A stretch of 24,000 bases of DNA, taken from the NCBI GenBank assembly GCA_038748225.1, contig JBCDJC010000040.1, forward strand, positions 1-24,000, given 5' to 3'. Source of the DNA: Cyanobacteria bacterium P01_H01_bin.26. GTDB taxonomy: Bacteria; Cyanobacteriota; Cyanobacteriia; Phormidesmidales; Phormidesmidaceae. The position numbers and the translations under genes are program-made. The notes under the pieces were generated by a model. It worked only from the letters and a program-made list of their open reading frames with translations. It made no database searches and was not told the DNA's origin. The first letter of the stretch is position 1. Each line of letters opens with the position of its first letter. Below, piece after piece: positions 1,121 to 18,425 of this stretch.

Positions 1121-2107
1121 TTATGGAGCCTGGGGCGCTGGTGGTTGAGTCCGTGGTCCATTGGGGCCGATTTCTAGGTGCCATTCGGGGTGGTTTTGGA
1201 TGGCGGTACGGACGCCTTTGCGGCAGGTGGGATTTTGCCAAAGCATCTGGTAGCGCTGTAGTCGCTGGTCTGGGGTTTCCTCATTGAGGGGAATGGGGGT
1301 GAGACGTTGTTCAACTTGGCGCTGGCTTTCGAGCCATTGCAGGTATTCGGTGTAGAGGCGATTGCCGTATTTACGGATCCAGCCTTGAGCGGCGCTTTGT
1401 TTGGAGGCGGGTGGCTCAGGGAGTCGGGGTATTTTGTGTCTTATTACAAAGGCGAAAAAATCGGGGTCGTCCTCGGCGGAAAAGTCCACCCATTGCTGAG
1501 GTCCGGGAAGTGATGCCTCACCCGTTTGAGAATGCTCAGGTGCATCTAGGGATAGCGTGATTTCTTGGCTATTGGACTGCTCTAGCTCTGAGGAAAGCGA
1601 AGCGATTTTCTCTCTCTTTTTTAAAGAAGAGTTGGAAGGAAGTTGAGAAGGATCTGGGGAATTGGGAAATGCTTGCTGGGATTCGGTTTTGGCGACTGAC
1701 TGTGTCTGAGTTGTCTCAGGGTGTGACAGATCGATCGCTCTAGGTGACAGACCTGTCACAGGTGAGTCAATTTGACTCAGGGTGGGAACGCGCAGATTAA
1801 CGCTACCTTTAATATGTTCTTCTAGCTTGTCGTTGGCGATCAATTCGGCTTTGGCTCGATAAAAGGTACGACGGTTGATGTGCCATTCGCGGCAGAACTG
1901 GGAAACGTTTTCGACACGGAACCACCAGCCTTGTTTTCTGAGGGCAAGGATGAGGTGGTAGAGGTACCCAGCGGGAGTGTAGAAATGGTCGAGCCAGTTT
2001 TGGTGGACGGCCTCTGGGGTGAGTCTGAGGTGTGAGCGGGTAGTGTTTTTTGCAGGCTGCAGACTCTGTCCTCCGTCGTAGGCACTCGGAGAATTTTCTG
2101 TCATCAT
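1121..2107 (-). CDS. Hypothetical winged-helix DNA-binding protein; possible plasmid replication or maintenance protein
   Basis: Long ORF with the HTH-like stretch WWFRVENVSQFCREWHINRRTFYRAKAELIAN. Start placed at MMTENS (2105-2107) because a strong hairpin occupies 2128-2158. The functional call is only by analogy to plasmid-borne wHTH proteins. Confidence 0.6.
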   Translation of the reverse strand: MMTENSPSAYDGGQSLQPAKNTTRSHLRLTPEAVHQNWLDHFYTPAGYLYHLILALRKQGWWFRVENVSQFCREWHINRRTFYRAKAELIANDKLEEHIKGSVNLRVPTLSQIDSPVTGLSPRAIDLSHPETTQTQSVAKTESQQAFPNSPDPSQLPSNSSLKKREKIASLSSELEQSNSQEITLSLDAPEHSQTGEASLPGPQQWVDFSAEDDPDFFAFVIRHKIPRLPEPPASKQSAAQGWIRKYGNRLYTEYLQWLESQRQVEQRLTPIPLNEETPDQRLQRYQMLWQNPTCRKGVRTAIQNHPEWHLEIGPNGPRTQPPAPQAP

Positions 2108-2182
2108 AGGACTAGTTAAATTTACGGATGCCCCGGAGCTGTGCAAGGCGTGGGGCATTTTTTTATGGAATTTGCTGGATAG

Positions 2183-2353
2183 CTAGGCGGCTCGTTCTTG
2201 GCGGTTGAGCAGGCTTTCGAGGGCTTCCTCAATCAGGTCTGAGAGTGAGCGTTTTTGTTGGATTGCGCTGATTTGTGCCCGCTGCTTAAGCTCGGGCGTC
2301 ATGCGGATAGTGAGGTTTTGCCGAGGGGGGTTCGGCTGAGGGGCGCTTTTCAT
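2183..2353 (-). CDS. Ribbon-helix-helix (CopG/Arc-like) small DNA-binding protein, 56 aa
   Basis: Not in the ORF track because it is under 60 aa. My translation is MKSAPQPNPPRQNLTIRMTPELKQRAQISAIQQKRSLSDLIEEALESLLNRQERAA. NLTIRMTPEL forms the beta-strand, followed by two helices, which is typical of RHH. It is transcribed divergently from the XRE gene. Confidence 0.6.
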   Translation of the reverse strand: MKSAPQPNPPRQNLTIRMTPELKQRAQISAIQQKRSLSDLIEEALESLLNRQERAA

Positions 2354-2462
2354 GACCGATGCATAAATCTAATTTGTCCGACTGATCAATCATGTTAATT
2401 ATGAGTGATTATTTGGTCAAGCAATTATGTGATGTCTGGCTTTATTATTTGGAGGTCAATCT

Positions 2463-2936
2463 TTGAAAGTTCGTAAAAAGTCGGCTGTAGCGTTTGTGGA
2501 CGAAGGGTTTTTGAAGCGATTGGGTGAGGTGGTGCATGAAATTCGTGGCGATCAATCGCAGCGGCAGTTTGCGCGGACGATGCAGGTGTCGCAGTCTACG
2601 GTGCAGCAGTGGGAGAATGGTCGAAATGTGCCGAGTTTGGAGAATTTGGAGAAGATTGCTCGGTTGAAGGGGATGCTGGTAGAGGATTTTATTGCTTATC
2701 TGTATGGTCGTAGCCATGGGCCGACGCGAACTGACATCATGGCGCGGGTTGGGGTGATGAAGGCAGAGGATTTTGGTCAGATCTTGCATATTATTGGGGA
2801 TCGGCTTGCGCCGCCTGCTGAGGAGAAGCCGCCGGGAAAGCCGAAAGCCAAGAGTAAGAAGACATCCGCAAAGAAAGTGCGGGTGCCATTAACGCTGGAG
2901 TTAAGTAAACGTACGGAAATGAATTCTGGAGGATGA
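2463..2936 (+). CDS. XRE/Cro-C1-type HTH transcriptional regulator with a lysine-rich C-terminal tail
   Basis: RGDQSQRQFARTMQVSQSTVQQWENGRNVPSLENLEKIARL is a canonical HTH_XRE motif. TTG start preceded by GGAGG (2451-2455). Only a 10-nt gap to the next gene. Confidence 0.8.
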   Translation: MKVRKKSAVAFVDEGFLKRLGEVVHEIRGDQSQRQFARTMQVSQSTVQQWENGRNVPSLENLEKIARLKGMLVEDFIAYLYGRSHGPTRTDIMARVGVMKAEDFGQILHIIGDRLAPPAEEKPPGKPKAKSKKTSAKKVRVPLTLELSKRTEMNSGG

Positions 2937-2946
2937 AGCAAGTTTT

Positions 2947-3273
2947 ATGACTCAAAAGAAGAAACTGGCTGAATTTACATTGGCAGATGGGGAGACCACT
3001 TTTTTAGTGGAGGTGCCTGAGCCGATTAATGAAGATGTAGTAGAAGAAGTTTCTGTCTTGGATGAGCCTCTACTCAAGGCTAAGGAATCATTTGAGGCGG
3101 CCTTGGATAAAGTGATTCCAGTGGCGTCTGCGGCCATGGGTAGGTTAAAGAAAGCTTCGGCAGACGAGGTAGAGGTGAAATTTGGCCTAAATCTGAGTGC
3201 GGATGCTGGGGTGATTTTTTCGAGTGTGGGTAGCGAAGTGACATTTGAGATCACGATGAAGTGGGGAAAATAG
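2947..3273 (+). CDS. Small Trypco2-like (trypsin co-occurring, CU044_2847-like) protein
   Basis: 108 aa. C-terminus VEVKFGLNLSADAGVIFSSVGSEVTFEITMKWGK matches my memory of the trypsin-co-occurring domain 2 family. It sits 14 nt upstream of a trypsin-like protease gene. Confidence 0.7.
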   Translation: MTQKKKLAEFTLADGETTFLVEVPEPINEDVVEEVSVLDEPLLKAKESFEAALDKVIPVASAAMGRLKKASADEVEVKFGLNLSADAGVIFSSVGSEVTFEITMKWGK

Positions 3274-3287
3274 GCAGATAGAACTCT

Positions 3288-5117
3288 ATGGCAGACGGTG
3301 GTAGGAGACTAGATCAGGCTTATAAGTGTGCGATCGCACGCATCCACGGCAAAAGTAACAAGGTGATTGGTACTGGCTTTTTGGTGGACGGTGGTGTGAT
3401 TACCTGCGCCCATGTGGTTCGGGATGCGCTACGGCTGGGTCGCGGTCAGACGCCTGCCCAGGGCTCTAAGGTTATGATTAGCTTTCCGTTTTCTGTATCA
3501 AAGCGACCGATATCGGCTGAGGTAAAAATTTATCGATACTACAAAGAAGAAGACCAGCACCGGGAAGACGTAGCAGGACTGATTTTATTGGAGCCTTTGC
3601 CGGAGAGAACCAGCCCTATCCGACGGATTGAAGGTTATGGTCTGGAAAATTCCTTTCGAGTGTATGGATTTCCTGAGAAGCGAGCAGCTGGGCGAGAGGC
3701 GACGGGACGGTTTATGACCGATCTGGCGGACGGTCTAGTGCAGATTATTGGTAAGGATGGGTTTTCGATTCAGGCTGGTTTTAGTGGTTCTGCAATCTGG
3801 GATGAGCAGGTCGCTGCGGTGGTTGGGATGACTGTGGCGGTGGAGACGGAGGAACAGAACTCGGATATTGGATTTATGGTTCCAGCTTTGCCGCTGGTGG
3901 AGGTGCAGCGAAAGTTAGAATGTTTGGTGTTGGAGTATTTGCTAACGGTAGACGACGAGGGGCTGGCGGCGCAGATAAACGCAGCGACTGCCCAAGCCTA
4001 TGGGCTGAGTTGCCCTGATGGCTGGATAGTGCCTGACGGCATTGAATCAAAGTTAATCGGTCTGCAAGATGTGCAACTGGCTGAAAATGAGTATGAGGCC
4101 ATTTACCGATTCGCAGCTTTGCTAACCCAGCCTGAGCTAGGTCTGGAGCAAGACCTACGGGACCGGATTCAACAATGGGTGGAGCCCAAGGTTGAGAATT
4201 TCCAGAATTTATTAGACCAGGTTCAAGCTCAGCTGGCTGATCTATCAGAAAGCCAAGAGACTGATGCAGAGTCTTTATTACTGATTACGGTGAAGCCTGT
4301 TTCTGGAGATGAATATCCGGTACAGGCTCTGTTTATGCCAGATGTAAGTCAGTATCAGCCTGAGTTTGGCATGGGTGGACAACCGGTACAGGCTCCGAAA
4401 GCTAATAAATTTGGCGAGAATGTGACAGCCGACACCTTATCAAGTTTGGTCCGTGCCTGTGTTGCGGAAGTGACCCAGAAGGCCCCTCAGAGCCTGATGA
4501 TTCATCTGATTTTGCCATTGGATTTAATTCATCAGACGTGCGATCGCACCATCATTGAAAAAGCAGCCTATGATTTTCTGCCTGATGTTTGCATCGGCAT
4601 GCAATACCGCTTTGTAGTTCGCATAGCAGAGCGGCTGGAGCCGCAGCTGTGGAATCTCTTTAGTGTGAACTGGCAAAAAAAATGGACAGCACTACAAAAA
4701 CTGGCAGCAGGTAAGGGATGTAAAGTATTTATTCCAGGTGACAGTTTAGACCCTAAGACGGCCTTATTCTCAAAGCTCAACCATACCGATAGTTTGGGCC
4801 TAAAGCTAGCCAGTGTTTGTAACAATGCTTCCTACCGTGACATTTTTGGATCGGTGATTGCTGCGGGGGTACCAGCAGCGATTTGGTTACGGTCGGATGA
4901 GTTTTCCGATGGACTGGTGGCTATGGATGAAATCGACGGTCTACTGACCTGTAAAATTGCTAGGCTACCGCAGGCAATCCAGCAGGCTCGCTCTGATGCT
5001 ATGGCCGAGGCTGAGGATGCTCACATTGGTCATCATCTGTCTTTTTTATGGGATGACCCTACGCTCATTCCACCCAGTGCCCATCCCAATAATCAAATGT
5101 CTCTTGGAATGAAATAA
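3288..5117 (+). CDS. Trypsin-like serine protease fused to a VMAP-type (vWA-MoxR-associated protein) C-terminal region
   Basis: The N-terminal ~200 aa carry candidate catalytic-triad contexts: GTGFLVDGGVITCAHVV (His), EDVAGLILLE (Asp), GFSGSAIWD (Ser). The remaining ~400 aa are non-catalytic and lie immediately (2-nt gap) upstream of a MoxR ATPase gene, as in ternary vWA-MoxR-VMAP systems. Confidence 0.8.
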   Translation: MADGGRRLDQAYKCAIARIHGKSNKVIGTGFLVDGGVITCAHVVRDALRLGRGQTPAQGSKVMISFPFSVSKRPISAEVKIYRYYKEEDQHREDVAGLILLEPLPERTSPIRRIEGYGLENSFRVYGFPEKRAAGREATGRFMTDLADGLVQIIGKDGFSIQAGFSGSAIWDEQVAAVVGMTVAVETEEQNSDIGFMVPALPLVEVQRKLECLVLEYLLTVDDEGLAAQINAATAQAYGLSCPDGWIVPDGIESKLIGLQDVQLAENEYEAIYRFAALLTQPELGLEQDLRDRIQQWVEPKVENFQNLLDQVQAQLADLSESQETDAESLLLITVKPVSGDEYPVQALFMPDVSQYQPEFGMGGQPVQAPKANKFGENVTADTLSSLVRACVAEVTQKAPQSLMIHLILPLDLIHQTCDRTIIEKAAYDFLPDVCIGMQYRFVVRIAERLEPQLWNLFSVNWQKKWTALQKLAAGKGCKVFIPGDSLDPKTALFSKLNHTDSLGLKLASVCNNASYRDIFGSVIAAGVPAAIWLRSDEFSDGLVAMDEIDGLLTCKIARLPQAIQQARSDAMAEAEDAHIGHHLSFLWDDPTLIPPSAHPNNQMSLGMK

Positions 5118-5119
5118 CG

Positions 5120-6154
5120 ATGGCTGAAAAAGCTAACTGGCGAATTTTCCAGGGAAACCGAAAGCCCCAACAGGATGGGGACTATATCACCAAGCATCTG
5201 CCAGATCCGCCGGGATGGCGGCCCTTTGGTGGTGAGCACGCTGACAGTGTGGCCACTCTGAAAAAGCAGCAACGCGGGGCCACGTTTCAGGCAACGGATG
5301 ATGAAATCGATATGGTGAACGCGGCGTTGTATCTGCGGAGACCGTTGTTGATTACAGGCAAACCTGGCACTGGTAAAACGTCTTTGGCCTATGCAGTAGC
5401 CCACGAGCTTAACTTAGGCGAAGTACTATACTGGCCCATCACCACCCGTACTACCCGAAAAGAAGGACTTTATAGCTATGACGCTATTGCCCGTTTGCAA
5501 GATGCGCAGCTGGAGCGAGAAAAAGACATTGGCAGCTACATTACCCTTGGCCCTCTGGGTACCGCTCTGTTGCCAACGGACCACCCAAAGCGGCCACGGG
5601 TTTTATTGATCGATGAGATCGACAAGAGTGATATTGATCTCCCCAACGACCTGCTGCACCTGTTTGAAGATGGAGAGTTTGATATTCCTGAGGTGCTGCG
5701 GATGGCGGAGACACTTAAGGAGTCTGACACCACTGTGAAGATCCGTACAGCCTACAGTGAGCCGGACGAAACTCAGTTTGTAGAAACCCAGACGGGGCGG
5801 TTTCGCTGTGGGGCATTTCCTTTTGTGGTGTTGACCAGCAACGGTGAACGAGACTTTCCACCTGCATTTTTGCGGCGCTGTCTGCGGCTGAATATGGGTG
5901 AGCCAGATCCAGCGCGGCTCAAGAAAATTGTGGAAGCTCATCTAGGTCTGGACCTGGACGATAAGGATAAGGTGGACGCTGCCGAGGAACTGATTAAACA
6001 ATTTTGCCAGCGAGCGAAAAAGGGTGACCTGGCTACAGACCAGCTGCTGAATGCAGTGTATTTTGTGACACGGGAGCGGGTACCGGAGCAAAAAACACGG
6101 GATGCCCTAGTGGCTAAGCTGATGAAGTATCTCTCGAGTACTGAGGATGCATGA
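5120..6154 (+). CDS. MoxR-type AAA+ ATPase
   Basis: Walker A LITGKPGTGKTS, Walker B VLLIDEIDKSD, and downstream PPAFLRRCLRL. The stop overlaps the start of the next gene (ATGA at 6151-6154). Confidence 0.9.
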   Translation: MAEKANWRIFQGNRKPQQDGDYITKHLPDPPGWRPFGGEHADSVATLKKQQRGATFQATDDEIDMVNAALYLRRPLLITGKPGTGKTSLAYAVAHELNLGEVLYWPITTRTTRKEGLYSYDAIARLQDAQLEREKDIGSYITLGPLGTALLPTDHPKRPRVLLIDEIDKSDIDLPNDLLHLFEDGEFDIPEVLRMAETLKESDTTVKIRTAYSEPDETQFVETQTGRFRCGAFPFVVLTSNGERDFPPAFLRRCLRLNMGEPDPARLKKIVEAHLGLDLDDKDKVDAAEELIKQFCQRAKKGDLATDQLLNAVYFVTRERVPEQKTRDALVAKLMKYLSSTEDA

Positions 6155-9100
6155 GGTCTGATCGCCGTCCTGTCAAAGACCCTCAGGGAGTGGATGGATT
6201 TACCACGCTGTTGCGTCAGGCGGGGGTAGACTTTGGTGTGGAGGACCTGGCTGATGCCCTGTGGTTAGCCAAGTTTGTGGATGATCCAGGGGTAGATGAG
6301 GCCATACAGGCTGATGATCCAAATAAAGAGCAAGAAGGTCCCACTGTTCGCGAAGAATATTTAGAGCCTGAGGAAGACCTGGATCAGGATAATACGGCCC
6401 AGCTGAGCTTACCGTCGACTCAGGCAAAATCTCAAGGTGGCGAGAAGCCAGACGGTATCCCGATCAAGGCTCCAGCAGCCCCGGCACTGAGAATACGGCT
6501 AGACCTATCACGGGCGCTGCGACCATTGCGACGTATGGTGGACTCACCAGGTCGATTGATGTTTGATGAAGCGGCCACGGTAGAACAGATTGCCGATCAA
6601 CAGATTTGGTCGCCAGTGATGAAGCCTGCGCCAGAGCGATGGTTAGATGTGGCACTGGTGGTGGAAGAAACTCAAGCACTGTCAGTATGGAAAGAGACCA
6701 TTACCGAAGTGCAAACCCTGCTAGAGCGGCAGGGAGCTTTTCGGCAGGTGACCACCTGGCGACTAAAAGAACAAGGGGGTAAGTTGGCCCTGTTTCAACA
6801 TTGGCGGCGACCAGGTCAGCGACCTCGGCAGGCTAAGGACCTGTGGGATCCGTCTGGGCGGCGGTTGATTTTGTTGTTGAGTGATTGTACGTCAGTGGCC
6901 TGGCACGATGGCTCCATATTGACCTGGCTGCAAACCTGGAGCAAGCGCGCCCCGACTGCCATGATGCAGCTATTGCCCGAGAGGTTGTGGTCTCAGACAG
7001 GGCTGGGAGGGGGAGTGCCAGTGCAGCTAGGGGCCATTGAACCTGGCTGTGTAAATGAGCGACTGATGATGACCTATCGGTTACCAATCTACAAACAGTT
7101 ACTGGCAGGGATAGATACAGCAGACCGTGTGAAGTTACCCGTTGTGACTTTGCAGGCTCAGCCCCTGAAGCAGTGGGCCAAAGTGGTGGCAGGCAGTGGT
7201 GAGAGCTGGGCCACAGGCATGGTGTTTGATGGGGGAGAGAAGAAAAGAGAAGAGATAGTAGATAAAGGCCAAGGGATAGGCAAAATAGAGCCAGCACTAC
7301 GGGTGCAGCGGTTTCGGATGACGGCGTCGTTGATGGCGCAGGAACTGGCGGGGCTGATGTCCGTGGCTCCGGTAAGTCCCCCCATTGTGGATTTAATCCG
7401 GCAGACGCTGTTGCCTAGGGCGGAGCCGGTGCATGTGGCGGAAGTGTATATGGGAGGGCTGATGGAGCCCTCGCAGGCTAATGACCAGAGTGAAGTGACC
7501 TATGACTTTGATGATGAGGTGCGCAAGCTGTTGGCGAATTCAGTACCTCGGTCGGTGTCAAAGCATGTGTTAAATGCGGTGTCGGCTTACATCTCAGAGC
7601 GGTTGAATTTGAATACCCGCAGCTTTGAAGCGTTGCTGAGCGTTGACTTTGGAGATGATGTTGAAGCGGAGGGAATGGTGGTGCCCTTTGCCAGGGTAGC
7701 GGAACAAACCCTAAGGCGGATGGGGCGAGAGTATGCGGCGATCGCAGATCGAATACAGACGCGACCAAAGGTAGCATTACCGTCTGTTGAAGGGGATGCG
7801 AGTAATTGGGTGCCTCTATTACAGACATTCACGTTTAGAGAGGCGATGGTTGTTTTTGAAACTCAGTCAGAAACAACAGTAGAAAGGTCGTTAGAGGTGG
7901 CAGAGCCTGACGATGTAGAAGACGAAATTCAACGCTATGGGTTAACGCCTCGTGAAGCCGAGGTGTGGCGTTTGCGTAGGCAAGGACTTACTCATCAGGA
8001 AATCGCCCAGGAACTAGTTATTACAGCTAATACGGTTAAAAAACATGTCAATAATATTTTGTCTAAACAGCAGCTTGCGAGAGTACAGTCCAATGACGAT
8101 AATAAGCGTTATAGCTTAACTTCCCGTGAAGCAGATGTATGGCAGTTACGTCAGCGGGGAGCGACCTATCAAGAAATCGCTCAAGAACTGTTTATTTCAG
8201 TAAATACAGTCAAAAAACATCTCAAGAGTATTTTGGCTAAACGGCAATTCGTAGAGAAAAAAGAAGAACTAGCTGCTGAAAGTCAGCGATACGGATTTAC
8301 AGAGCGTGAGGCAGCCGTGTGGGAGCTGCATCAGTTTAATCATAACAAAGAGGAAATTGCTAAAGAACTTTACATTACTGTTGATACCGTTAGAAAGCAT
8401 TTAAGGAATATTCAAGCCAAACGTGAACAGGTTGAATCTCTCGGCGAAGATATGCGCTTTGAAAGATTCTCCTTTGAAACTGCTTACATAACTCTTGAGA
8501 AGACTGATGAGCAATCGCCGGAGCTGTTAATCACCTATCAAGAAAGTCATGGGAGGCAGTATATTGAAGGCCTAGGGAAAGACATTGAACTCCCAATGGT
8601 GTTACTTTCTGGTGGAACATTTGAAATGGGCTCGCCGGAGGATGAACAGGGATATGATCCTATGGACGGTCCACAGCATGTGGTTAGGGTACCTTCCTTC
8701 TTTATAGCCAAGTATCCTATTACTCAAGCTCAGTGGTGTGTGATTGCTGCGATGCCGCAGGTGAATCGTGAACTGGAGGCTGACCCGTCACATTTCAAGG
8801 GAGACAATTGCCCTGTTGAGAGTGTGAGCTGGTTTGATGCAGTAGAGTTTTGTGCGCGTCTCTCTAACCATACGGGGCGCGAATATCGCTTACCCACCGA
8901 AGCTGAATGGGAATATGCCTGTCGTGCCGGAACAACAACTCCATTCCATCTTGGTGAGACTATTACGGCAGACCTAGCAAATTATAATGCCACTGAAACT
9001 TTTGGTTCCGGTCCTGAGGGAGAATATCGAGAACAAACAACCGATGTAGCAAGCTTCCCAGCCAACGCCTTTGGCCTTTATGACATGCACGGCAATGTGT

Positions 9101-9348
9101 GGGAATGGTGTTTAGACCACTGGCATGACAACTATGAAGGGGCTCCTACCGACGGTAGTGCTCGGATAGACCCTAGCAAGAGTAACAAAAAAGACTCTGA
9201 CGAGAGCAAAAACCGTGTGCTGCGTGGCGGTTCGTGGTACATCTATCCTGAGGACTGCCGGTCGGCGGCCCGCAACTCCCTTACCCCGGGCGACCGCAGC
9301 AGCTCTAACGGTTTTCGGGTAGTGTGTGGTTCGGCGAGGACATCTTAG
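6151..9348 (+). CDS. vWA-type partner of MoxR. Architecture: SAV_2336-like N-terminal region, vWA-like region, three LuxR/GerE HTH modules, and a C-terminal FGE-sulfatase (CLec-fold) domain bearing DGR VR1
   Basis: N-terminus LLRQAGVDFGVEDLADALWLAKFV. vWA-like strands LDVALVVEETQ and RRLILLLSDCTSVAW. Three ~49-aa repeats with the (Q/K)RY.LT.REA.VW...EIAQEL.I..NTVKKH pattern (7930-8076, 8104-8250, 8284-8427). FGE-sulfatase motifs GGTFEMGSP, RLPTEAEWEYACRAGT, HGNVWEWC, LRGGSW, GFRVV. Confidence 0.8.
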   Translation: MRSDRRPVKDPQGVDGFTTLLRQAGVDFGVEDLADALWLAKFVDDPGVDEAIQADDPNKEQEGPTVREEYLEPEEDLDQDNTAQLSLPSTQAKSQGGEKPDGIPIKAPAAPALRIRLDLSRALRPLRRMVDSPGRLMFDEAATVEQIADQQIWSPVMKPAPERWLDVALVVEETQALSVWKETITEVQTLLERQGAFRQVTTWRLKEQGGKLALFQHWRRPGQRPRQAKDLWDPSGRRLILLLSDCTSVAWHDGSILTWLQTWSKRAPTAMMQLLPERLWSQTGLGGGVPVQLGAIEPGCVNERLMMTYRLPIYKQLLAGIDTADRVKLPVVTLQAQPLKQWAKVVAGSGESWATGMVFDGGEKKREEIVDKGQGIGKIEPALRVQRFRMTASLMAQELAGLMSVAPVSPPIVDLIRQTLLPRAEPVHVAEVYMGGLMEPSQANDQSEVTYDFDDEVRKLLANSVPRSVSKHVLNAVSAYISERLNLNTRSFEALLSVDFGDDVEAEGMVVPFARVAEQTLRRMGREYAAIADRIQTRPKVALPSVEGDASNWVPLLQTFTFREAMVVFETQSETTVERSLEVAEPDDVEDEIQRYGLTPREAEVWRLRRQGLTHQEIAQELVITANTVKKHVNNILSKQQLARVQSNDDNKRYSLTSREADVWQLRQRGATYQEIAQELFISVNTVKKHLKSILAKRQFVEKKEELAAESQRYGFTEREAAVWELHQFNHNKEEIAKELYITVDTVRKHLRNIQAKREQVESLGEDMRFERFSFETAYITLEKTDEQSPELLITYQESHGRQYIEGLGKDIELPMVLLSGGTFEMGSPEDEQGYDPMDGPQHVVRVPSFFIAKYPITQAQWCVIAAMPQVNRELEADPSHFKGDNCPVESVSWFDAVEFCARLSNHTGREYRLPTEAEWEYACRAGTTTPFHLGETITADLANYNATETFGSGPEGEYREQTTDVASFPANAFGLYDMHGNVWEWCLDHWHDNYEGAPTDGSARIDPSKSNKKDSDESKNRVLRGGSWYIYPEDCRSAARNSLTPGDRSSSNGFRVVCGSARTS
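9220..9338 (+). repeat. DGR variable repeat VR1 (last 119 nt before the RTS-stop of the vWA/FGE-sulfatase gene)
   Basis: Aligns without gaps to 10914-11032 and 12018-12136. Apart from one third-position difference from the TR-like copy in codon 22, differences fall only at positions 1-2 of 13 codons. Confidence 0.85.
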
Positions 9349-9473: not shown

Positions 9474-9875
9474 ATGAAAAAAGAGTTGCCTATTGTGCAA
9501 AAGACCTACGACCTGCTGAAGTGGTATGTGCCGATTTTGAATAAGCTGCCTCGTGAGCATAAGTTTTTGCTGGGGGACCGAATGATTACAGGGCTATACG
9601 AACTTATGGAAGGACTGGTTTTGGCGCGATACAGCTCAGACAAACTGCCTCGACTCCAGGTGTTAAACAGTCGGTTGGATCTGCTGCGGCATCAGACTCG
9701 TCTGCTGCTGGACTTTGAGCTGATGTCTGTGAAGCGCTATGAGTATGCTGGGCAGTTGCTGAATGACATTGGCCGAGAGCTGGGCGGTTGGATACGACAG
9801 CAGCGGGCAAAGGCAGCATGGAACGCTACGGCAACCTCTGGCCCGATATCATTGCCTTTGAAAATCTGCTGCTAG
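9474..9875 (+). CDS. avd: Avd-like accessory variability determinant (four-helix-bundle, 23S rRNA IVS protein family)
   Basis: YDLLKWYVPILNKLPREHKFLLGDRM and IGRELGGWIRQQ match the four-helix-bundle/Avd pattern. It lies directly upstream of, and overlaps by 58 nt, the RT start. Confidence 0.85.
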   Translation: MKKELPIVQKTYDLLKWYVPILNKLPREHKFLLGDRMITGLYELMEGLVLARYSSDKLPRLQVLNSRLDLLRHQTRLLLDFELMSVKRYEYAGQLLNDIGRELGGWIRQQRAKAAWNATATSGPISLPLKICC

Positions 9876-11234: not shown

Positions 11235-12146
11235 ATGGCAGCACCACCCGAAACTAAACCACAGCTAGTCGTTCGCTATCGAGACCGTACAGCTCAGTTT
11301 TTTACCGAAGATGATCTAGCGCTAACAGCGGAGCAGACAGCTCTAGAAATGGTGCTTATTCCTGAGGGGGAATTTATGATGGGCTCCCCTCAAGATGAGC
11401 AAGGGCGGGATTTATATGGTGAAGTGCAAGACGACTACAAAGGTGTTGATGTAGAAGGCCCTCAGCACCTGGTGAGGGTGCCTTCCTTCTTTATTGGTAA
11501 ATACCCGGTAACCCAGGCCCAATGGCGGGCAGTGGCCGCTCTACCCCAGATAGAGCAGGAGCTTGAGCCAAACCCGTCCAGCTTTAAGGGAGACAATCGC
11601 CCGGTAGAGCAAGTCAGCTGGCACGATGCGATGGAGTTCTGCGCGCGGCTACAGAAGCATACAGGGAAGCCCTATCGTTTACCTAGCGAAGCTGAATGGG
11701 AATATGCCTGTCGGGCAGGCACGACTACGCCATTCCACTTTGGCACATCGATCACAACAGATTTAGCCAATTATTCTGGAACCGATTATGAATACGGAGG
11801 TAGAACCTTTTCAGGGGCCTATGGCAATGGTCCTCATGGTGTTTATCGAGAAGAAACTACAGATGTGGGAAGTTTTGCGATCGCAAATGCCTTTGGTCTC
11901 TATGACATGCACGGCAACGTCTGGGAATGGTGTTTAGACCACTGGCACAAAACCTATGAAGAAGCTCCTAAAGATGGTCGCGCATGGATATCCTCTGGCG
12001 AGAGTGAATTGCGCGTACTGCGTGGCGGTTCGTGGTACGGCAATCCTGAGTTCTGCCGGTCGGCGTTCCGCGACGACTATACCCCGGGCGACCGCAGCGA
12101 CAATAGCGGTTTTCGGGTAGTGTGTGGTTCGGCGAGGACATCTTAG
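11235..12146 (+). CDS. Free-standing FGE-sulfatase (CLec-fold) domain protein; second DGR target carrying VR2
   Basis: 303 aa. A close paralog of the C-terminal ~290 aa of the 6151-9348 product (GPQHLVRVPSFFIGKYPVTQAQW, RLPSEAEWEYACRAGTTTPFH, HGNVWEWCLDHWH, LRGGSW...GFRVVCGSARTS). Confidence 0.9.
   Translation: MAAPPETKPQLVVRYRDRTAQFFTEDDLALTAEQTALEMVLIPEGEFMMGSPQDEQGRDLYGEVQDDYKGVDVEGPQHLVRVPSFFIGKYPVTQAQWRAVAALPQIEQELEPNPSSFKGDNRPVEQVSWHDAMEFCARLQKHTGKPYRLPSEAEWEYACRAGTTTPFHFGTSITTDLANYSGTDYEYGGRTFSGAYGNGPHGVYREETTDVGSFAIANAFGLYDMHGNVWEWCLDHWHKTYEEAPKDGRAWISSGESELRVLRGGSWYGNPEFCRSAFRDDYTPGDRSDNSGFRVVCGSARTS
12018..12136 (+). repeat. DGR variable repeat VR2
   Basis: Gap-free alignment with VR1 shows 17 differences, all at codon positions 1-2 of 10 codons. 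The following 42 nt are also 37/42 identical to the VR1 flank. Confidence 0.85.
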
Positions 12147-17141: not shown

Positions 17142-18425
17142 GTGGACAAACGGATTAAGCGTACGCTTCGGAAACTATGGCGAGATCGATCGCTGATTAG
17201 CATTGGTGGTCTATTAGTTTTTGGATTTTCTGCCTTACAGCTACAAAGTCTTTTTAAGAGCCGTTCTGTATATCCTTCATGGGTTTTGGACTATTCTTAT
17301 TCAGTTGAGATACTGGTGCATGAGAATGGATCTGAAGAAGAACTAAACAATGCTATCCAAGAGATTTACAAAATCTCACAAGAACGCAACTTACAACGCA
17401 CTCGGATAGTTTTTGAAAAATTAGAGTGGGCTCGGGCTCAGGGGCTGACTTTGGATCTGGCTTTGGATCTGGCTCTGGTTCAGGATTTGGGTCAGGCTCG
17501 GGATCTGGCTCGGGATCTGGCTCGGGATCTGGCTCGTGTTCTGGTTCAGACTTGGGATCGGAATGGGGTTTGGGCTTGGACTCTGGCTCTGGATCAGGAG
17601 CGGGATCAGGCTCGGGCTTTGGATCTGGCTCTGGCTCAGAATCAGGCTCTAGCTCTGGCTCTGGCTCAGGATCTGGCTCTAGCTCGGGTTCAGGCTCAGA
17701 CTAGGGATCAGGATTGGGCTGTGGCTCAGGTTCAGGCTCTAGCTTTATCTCGGGCTCTGGCTCAGGATTTGGCTCAGGATTTGGCTCAGGATTTGGCTCT
17801 GGCTCAGGATTTGGCTCTGGCTCAGGATCATGATCAGGCTCAGGATTTGGCTCAGGATTTAGCTCAGGATTTGGCTTGGGCCAAGGCTCAGAATGTGCTT
17901 CAGGATTTGGCTGTGGCTCAGGATCAGGCTCTGGCTCAGGATTTGGCTCGAGTATCTGACCTGGCTGACGAATTGGTGAAGCTCTTGAATCAGGCTAACA
18001 ACACTCTACTCGTATTCGTCATAGCAACAGAGTTAGAAGAAACTCATGGGTTCACACTACAACATGGAAACACCTTGACAACTCTCTTGAGCCGTGAGCC
18101 TAATCGTGTCCGTACCTTAATGCAGTCAGGAATTTTATTGGGTGCATCAACCATAGTACTGTTCGGTTTGTTAGTGACACTTACCAGGCTCAAAAGAGTG
18201 CCTAACCTACCACGTACCGCCAATCTTATCGCCTTTCTTCCAGAAGAATATGTTGCGGAGCTGGGATACTTACAACGCCGCTTAAGGAAAACAAATAAGT
18301 CTCCCTGGCAAATTCGACGACGGCTGATGCACGAATTTGTCTTTCTACTCTGGGTGCATTACATCCAAGTACAGCTAGATAATCTGTTTTTAGGTTCCAA
18401 CCAAGATCACACTATTGACGACTAA
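17142..18425 (+). CDS. Membrane-anchored protein with a long (A/L)(Q/R)DLA-type low-complexity helical repeat region; PadR-coupled
   Basis: GTG start 1 nt after the PadR stop. Predicted TM segments [17 protein letters not shown] and [18 protein letters not shown]. About 180 aa of DLALDLA / [13 protein letters not shown] / [13 protein letters not shown] repeats. Confidence 0.7.
17428..17970 (+). repeat. In-frame degenerate tandem repeat (6/12/18-nt periodicity) inside the 17142-18425 CDS
   Basis: Includes three perfect tandem 12-mers CTCAGGATTTGG (17761-17796), further copies at 17803, 17839 and 17863 (one-mismatch variant at 17851), and interspersed CTCTGG units. Confidence 0.85.

Follow-up and report, generated by a model that had tools for sequence, protein, structure and literature searches.

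Three tandem LuxR-type helix-turn-helix units occupy the cargo slot of the vWA subunit in a predicted cyanobacterial VMAP ternary system

We analysed a 24,000-nt stretch of contig JBCDJC010000040.1 (hereafter, the window) from the genome of Cyanobacteria bacterium P01_H01_bin.26 (GCA_038748225.1; Cyanobacteriota, Phormidesmidales), in which an open reading frame (ORF) at 6151–9348 encodes a protein of 1,065 amino acids (aa). Between a SAV_2336-type vWA chassis and an FGE-sulfatase/C-type-lectin domain, this protein carries three consecutive helix-turn-helix (HTH) units of the LuxR/GerE type. A preliminary description of the window had reported three such units of ~49 aa at 7930–8427, spaced 174 and 180 nt apart, and translation of the ORF returned exactly the quoted units. 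The layout of the protein is as follows (HMM, hidden Markov model; pLDDT, predicted local distance difference test; pI, isoelectric point).

6151..7905, + strand: vWA-type chassis, aa 1–585 (NCBIfam SAV_2336_NTERM, NF041121, 415 bits over aa 31–485)
7783..7929, + strand: acidic, predicted-disordered linker at the module junction, aa 545–593 (pLDDT <50 at aa 545–587; net charge −11; pI 4.1)
7930..8085, + strand: LuxR/GerE-type HTH unit 1, aa 594–645 (best GerE stretch aa 598–639; unit HMM 107 bits; charge +5; pLDDT 75–94)
8104..8259, + strand: LuxR/GerE-type HTH unit 2, aa 652–703 (unit HMM 110 bits; charge +6; aligns to the VraR/LiaR DNA-binding domain)
8284..8439, + strand: LuxR/GerE-type HTH unit 3, the most divergent, aa 712–763 (unit HMM 108 bits; net charge 0; C-terminal flank QVESLGE)
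8440..9348, + strand: beta-hairpin extension and FGE-sulfatase (FGS)/C-type-lectin-fold domain with a variable C-terminus (Pfam FGE-sulfatase 190 bits, aa 816–1058)

The SAV_2336_NTERM model has a cut-off of 200 bits. In a full-length AlphaFold2 (AF2) model, computed from a 60-sequence alignment, the chassis consisted of an alpha/beta fold (aa 125–360) and a helical region (aa 380–537). At the other end of the protein, Foldseek matched the C-terminal lectin-fold domain to PvdO, FGE and T. denticola TvpA (2y3c). The HTH units thus lie between the two profile matches (aa 31–485 and aa 816–1058), in agreement with the earlier placement of the units between a vWA region and a diversified sensor domain. 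The HTH array itself forms a basic island (net charge +7, pI 9.7) within an acidic protein.

When searched with the Pfam GerE model (PF00196; gathering cut-off 23.5 bits), the ORF scored 90.2 bits (E = 6.2e-26) over three separate stretches, and the 166-aa HTH fragment alone scored 100 bits. This match is far above chance and bears out the proposed domain identity with one refinement, namely that only positions 3–44 of the 57 in the profile were covered, both in this protein and in its relatives with a single HTH. Individual units scored 105–114 bits with the unit HMM. The units start at aa 594, 652 and 712 (nt 7930, 8104 and 8284). A recount gave the same 31/49 identical residues between units 1 and 2 as before, with 25/49 between units 1 and 3 and 26/49 between units 2 and 3; the corresponding nucleotide identities were 72, 59 and 61%.

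Judged by the profile coverage and the structural models, all three units consist of a core of three helices and lack the canonical fourth (dimerisation) helix. A folded-back C-terminal helix was absent from all units in both AF2 models, the full-length model and a fragment model of aa 560–820 built from an alignment of three triplet-bearing sequences. In NarL and GerE, the fourth helix forms the dimer interface on DNA. In the fragment model, where pLDDT was 80–96 over the array, each unit opened with a short pre-helix (QRYG), followed by a scaffold helix and then the helix-turn-helix, and the recognition helix extended into the following unit's pre-helix. The linker between units 2 and 3 was helical in both models, and that between units 1 and 2 in the fragment model only, being of low confidence in the full-length model. 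Foldseek superposed single units on LiaR, DNA-bound NarL, GerE and VpsT at 0.6–1.4 Å over 42–48 residues (45–55% identity, probability 1.00), and the best phmmer matches among PDB sequences were the DNA-binding domains of VraR, LiaR, NarL and GerE.

Degeneration of the DNA-contact residues had been considered in the preliminary description; instead, the recognition helices have kept the TV(K/R)KH motif, and basic residues still occupy their DNA-reading positions. At the positions aligned to K188, V189 and K192 of NarL, which we take to be its base-contacting residues, the units carry K/K/N (unit 1), K/K/K (unit 2) and R/K/R (unit 3). The scaffold helix, the HTH core and the TV(K/R)xH recognition-helix motif are thus those of NarL (1JE8), LiaR (4WUL), VraR, GerE (1FSE) and VpsT, whereas the receiver or ligand domain and the fourth helix are missing, and three copies per chain stand in place of a homodimer.

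Other assignments were tried and rejected. As sigma factors, the units scored 53.5 bits with Sigma70_r4_2 and 51.9 bits with Sigma70_r4, below the 90.2 bits of GerE, and no region 2 was present. As a response regulator, the protein lacks a Response_reg domain, and the NCBIfam response-regulator models matched through the HTH part only, far below their cut-offs. The PDB match 8vd6 ("CAP repeat"), cited only in work on computational protein design, was set aside as irrelevant. The units also matched the C-terminal part of the PADLOC "CARF3--CARF" models (window 7858–8259, aa 570–703), which we take to be the HTH of type III CRISPR CARF-HTH regulators. By analogy, this match may point to a precedent among defence systems for a design that joins a sensor to an HTH.

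Among the best 120 whole-protein homologues, the triplet was found only in P0005 and P0006, two metagenome proteins 86–88% identical to the query. Across the order it occurred in two of 151 genomes, the present one (G000) and G091 of the same genus, in addition to two metagenome contigs (L001 and L002). The G091 locus has the same operon, with an intact ORF of 1,061 aa and an intact reverse transcriptase (RT) ORF of 364 aa. Seven homologues of ~50% identity (P0008–P0012, P0015 and P0025) share the chassis and slot, with a lone HTH of this subtype in the corresponding position, as against three here. The flanks of this single HTH match the N-terminal flank of unit 1 (EIQRYGLT) and the C-terminal flank of unit 3 (QVESLGE), and the triplet is therefore an internal tandem duplication of one HTH. 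Because the units are only 45–55% identical to each other, the duplication must be old; they are as distant from the single HTHs as from one another, and the maximum-likelihood tree of the units left the order of duplication without resolution.

Each unit is 83–96% conserved between the triplet lineages. The ratio of nonsynonymous to synonymous divergence (dN/dS, Nei–Gojobori) over the array was 0.15–0.20 in all three lineage pairs, similar to that of the chassis, and exceeded 1 in the C-terminal variable region (aa 1021–1065). By this measure, all three units are under purifying selection in three diverged lineages. Conservation of the triplet among homologues, a point raised in the preliminary description, was accordingly upheld within these lineages and not beyond them, the two genomes and two metagenome contigs being its known extent.

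The synonymous divergence (dS) itself varied ~30-fold along the gene when the window (7930–9348) was compared with L001, from 0.03 in HTH unit 1 to 0.97 in the FGS domain, which indicates a recombination mosaic. In L001 (2032–2655) and L002 (6068–6691), the orthologues of window 6151–6774 carry the same CAA-to-TAA change at codon 208. The first 207 codons of these two copies are identical, the remainder of the gene differs with a dS of 0.24–0.83, and L001 is G091-like from codon 209 on. Their 5′ region has the appearance of an N-terminal segment that was recombined and bears the premature stop.

The ORF belongs to a co-directional operon, of which the following genes flank it.

2463..2936, + strand: XRE-type HTH gene, the first gene of the operon (Pfam HTH_3, E = 2.8e-11)
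2947..3273, + strand: Trypco1 (trypsin co-occurring domain) protein (Pfam PF19493, 82.8 bits)
3288..5117, + strand: VMAP subunit, trypsin-like peptidase-VMAP-M1-VMAP-C (Pfam VMAP-C 100.7 bits, VMAP-M1 53.9 bits, Trypsin_2 24.4 bits, the last below its cut-off of 27.6 bits)
5120..6154, + strand: MoxR-like AAA+ ATPase (Pfam AAA_5 and AAA, weak bpMoxR match)
9474..9875, + strand: bAvd accessory protein of a linked diversity-generating retroelement (DGR; Pfam bAvd 72 bits)
11235..12146, + strand: second, free-standing FGE-sulfatase target gene (Pfam FGE-sulfatase 191 bits)

The gene order is XRE-HTH, Trypco1, trypsin-VMAP, MoxR, the 1,065-aa ORF, bAvd and the second FGE-sulfatase gene, with an overlap of 4 nt between the MoxR-like ATPase gene and the 1,065-aa ORF. 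The XRE-type HTH gene holds the same place in L002 and G091. The vWA/MoxR context proposed earlier could be specified as a trypsin/MoxR/vWA operon of the VMAP type, since it combines an adjacent MoxR, a SAV_2336-type vWA component, a VMAP protein and a variable cargo with FGS as its last domain and a DGR link. By gene content, the operon is a DGR-linked VMAP ternary conflict system of the cyanobacterial kind, and the 1,065-aa protein its vWA subunit.

This assignment allows comparison with the published systems. The set and order of genes, from Trypco1 through vWA-FGS and on to bAvd, RT and a second FGS target, are the same as in described VMAP ternary systems (PMC7159879; PMC10907252). Kaur et al. 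(2020) listed HTH domains among the effectors of the vWA component, reported that cyanobacterial FGS occurs together with ten or more further domains, always N-terminal to FGS, and found ~80% of cyanobacterial and gammaproteobacterial VMAP-ternary systems to be DGR-linked (PMC7159879). Their HTH cargoes comprised a CRP-like winged HTH and "different HTH domains" with no LuxR array named, whereas the cargo here is three tandem LuxR/GerE HTHs (PMC7159879). An HTH in the vWA slot is therefore already known, and the LuxR triplet is a new variation on it. Our literature search for work coupling LuxR HTHs with DGR targets, or dealing with HTH_VMAP-M9, found no specific paper.

The position occupied by the array behaves as an exchangeable cargo slot. 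In Adonisia turfae, P0013 matches the query at 83% identity over aa 1–585 (window 6151–7905) and then carries an S8 peptidase in place of the three HTHs and the FGS domain. The homology breaks at aa 585, inside the predicted disordered linker, and the two proteins differ by what is, judged from the alignment, a clean cargo swap. The resemblance also suggests that the source of the window has a close affinity with Adonisia or Leptolyngbya ectocarpi. Other homologues have TIR_2, NACHT, EVE or PF26355 (HTH_VMAP-M9) in the slot. Among 123 homologues scored with HMMs built from the sequences, 10 had a LuxR-type HTH, 32 an M9-type HTH and four both, so that 38 carried an HTH of either kind. The M9-type HTHs were all single-copy, with no array among these 123 proteins. 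M9 carriers share the chassis and slot with the present protein, in which the M9-type HTH is absent: P0005 and P0006, near-identical to it, have no precomputed PF26355 match, and an HMM from six M9 segments gave no match on P0002. In hhalign, the LuxR-type and M9-type HTHs were linked over only 22 core columns. Confined to a narrow lineage and seen against these homologues, the triplet differs in copy number from a common occupant of the slot and is not a new design.

One further architecture was seen in a partial protein from Leptolyngbya ectocarpi (P0144; G068:C204), in which the vWA chassis leads into a single LuxR HTH and then a second, weak HTH-like segment, and the C-terminus is different and truncated. 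It may be either an intermediate form or another kind of cargo. The present genome also encodes, on contig C67 (L004:1426–4134), a second SAV_2336-type vWA-FGS paralogue of 902 aa; Pfam detects neither an HTH nor any other domain in the slot of this protein, to which the unit and M9-type HMMs were not applied.

The closest free-standing relatives of the units are cyanobacterial proteins of 200–265 aa with an unassigned N-terminal domain, whose annotation reads "response regulator transcription factor" or "HTH transcriptional regulator". Their HTH is the same, QRYGLT..VW..NTVKKH, and the chain ends just past the recognition helix. This genome encodes two of them, at C108:618–1241(−) in L006 (207 aa) and at C363:57–725(−) in L007 (222 aa), and the array units are 55–64% identical to these same-subtype host regulators. 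Like P0172 and P0179, they are examples of small regulators of ~200–230 aa that share with the array the signature QRYGLT..REaeVW..NTVKKH and the end right past the recognition helix; they differ in having one free-standing HTH, whereas here the module is triplicated inside a 1,065-aa subunit of a conflict system. The 207- and 222-aa regulators likely represent the source family of the HTH module. Their N-termini appeared PAS-like by eye and had no Pfam match, and the PAS assignment was dropped. The module accordingly resembles what small one-component regulators have as their output domain, and this likeness favours a DNA-binding role.

A tandem array proved less unusual than the preliminary description had assumed in stating that LuxR-type HTHs normally occur once per polypeptide. 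Searching the 166-aa fragment against 1.84 billion representative proteins, we found many proteins with 2–12 units of the HTH superfamily. P0130 has three full GerE domains, P0133 combines a WXG100-like N-terminus with four GerE domains, and arrays of 5–12 units occur in proteins of 600–7,700 aa. These proteins have in common with ours that several superfamily units lie in one polypeptide; unlike ours, they belong to unrelated contexts, the majority of their units are either generic HTH_23-like or full four-helix GerE units, and none of them has a vWA or FGS frame.

The tripartite direct repeat that the preliminary description had suggested as a target could not be tied to the protein at any of the three scales searched. 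No such repeat was found upstream of the operon (repeat search, 2100–3300) or, with Tandem Repeats Finder (TRF), in the window. A whole-genome TRF search (5.48 Mb) returned 87 triple repeats with a period of 9–24 and no shared consensus, none of them on the contig of the operon (C40). Directly 5′ of the XRE gene, ~110 nt (window 2350–2462) are nearly invariant, with ~7 differing positions among the three lineages, and contain four ATTAT motifs (AATTATGAGTGATTATTTGG ... AATTATGTGATG ... TTATTATTTGG). This segment is likely a promoter with an operator. It could not be assigned to the LuxR array, because the lineages are too similar in sequence and the gene of the XRE repressor lies right there.

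Taken together, these results confirm the observation in the preliminary description and support its interpretation in part. We find it modestly probable that the three HTHs serve the system as a DNA-binding output or anchor. Each reading discussed here was judged separately, and the likelihoods we attach to them need not add up to one. In the mechanism that we favour, the covalent linkage of three HTHs would provide the multivalency for which canonical LuxR proteins rely on dimer formation, and would so replace the missing dimerisation helix. The array could then read two or three adjacent major-groove sites. The trigger would be ligand capture by the lectin domain, remodelling by MoxR and/or cleavage by the VMAP protease in the acidic linker. 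A fragment comprising the three HTHs and the lectin domain would thereby be exposed or released and would bind DNA, changing transcription or blocking the target DNA. As the cleavable or flexible segment, the acidic linker 5′ of unit 1 (aa 545–593) seems more plausible than the linkers between units, because the latter are partly modelled as helix. This scheme draws on the model of Kaur et al., in which, as summarised by Doré et al. (2024), MoxR action is followed by cleavage of the vWA protein by the VMAP peptidase, whereby the effector domains are freed (PMC10907252).

Several observations weigh against a DNA-binding output or anchor. None of the repeat searches yielded a tripartite target. 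The two AF2 models conflict on the rigidity of the linker between units 1 and 2, and the relative placement of the domains is of low confidence (predicted template modelling score, pTM, 0.43–0.45). Unit 3 has retained neither the QG turn nor a net positive charge and for this reason may not contact DNA. The premature TAA at codon 208 is common to two of the four known copies of the triplet. The RT reading frame in the window is also ~94 codons shorter than that of the congener G091, and the two truncations together suggest that the locus may be decaying. The restricted occurrence (2/151 genomes), the shared stop in the metagenomic copies, the shorter RT frame and the neutral charge of unit 3 would also suit a lineage-specific duplication that is close to neutral, lies in a decaying locus and has no function beyond that of a single HTH. 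We give this explanation little credence, since the duplication is old and its units have nevertheless stayed 83–96% conserved between lineages at a dN/dS of 0.15–0.20, and since the G091 locus is fully intact, RT included.

Two further alternatives concern what the array contacts and where the effector lies. The array could be a DNA tether or co-sensor, with the sensor complex parked on the nucleoid or on incoming foreign DNA, where the lectin domain would sample ligands, or with DNA binding as part of the trigger, and with the VMAP trypsin as the effector. Such a role would fit the model of Doré et al. (2024), in which sensing falls to the vWA-CLec protein and the VMAP protein acts as effector (PMC10907252), as well as the basic, DNA-competent appearance of the array and its position directly N-terminal to the sensing domain. 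We nevertheless regard it as unlikely, since in close relatives the slot holds effector or signalling domains (S8 peptidase, TIR_2, NACHT) and the nearest free-standing relatives of the HTHs are output domains of small regulators. The units could instead act through protein contacts, either as an integrated decoy mimicking host LuxR-type regulators or sigma region 4, which would bait invader proteins directed at these, or as an adaptor between chassis and lectin. Their scores on the two sigma models, their identity of 55–64% to same-subtype host regulators and the decoy-like inactive domains discussed for VMAP systems by Kaur et al. (PMC7159879) are in line with this idea. It is very improbable in our view: GerE reached 90 bits against 52–54 for the sigma models, the DNA-reading residues and the basic charge are retained and not relaxed, and no partner is known.

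A more specific version of a DNA-binding output can be envisaged, namely a transcription factor or DNA clamp in which a hypervariable lectin-fold receptor, reprogrammed by the DGR, is fused directly to three HTHs that recognise a composite site, possibly one of direct repeats. It would be licensed by MoxR and the trypsin, for example by removal of an autoinhibitory, DNA-mimicking acidic linker. This proposal is speculative and, in our judgement, quite doubtful. If it were true, evolution could tune the DNA affinity or specificity of cyanobacterial immune sensors through the number of HTH copies in the slot.

To our knowledge, VMAP ternary systems and the DGR-diversified lectin sensors of multicellular cyanobacteria are known from comparative genomics only. 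A LuxR-type cargo fused to a diversified domain offers a concrete experimental handle on the choice between models of effector release and models of sensing, and the natural one-copy and three-copy variants provide a ready series on the effect of HTH multiplicity. The finding is a variation within a catalogued architecture and not a new kind of system.

Elsewhere in the window, we observed an imperfect tandem repeat of 12/24 nt at 17452–17966, TGGCTC-rich and present in ~21–31 copies, within an ORF at 17142–18425.

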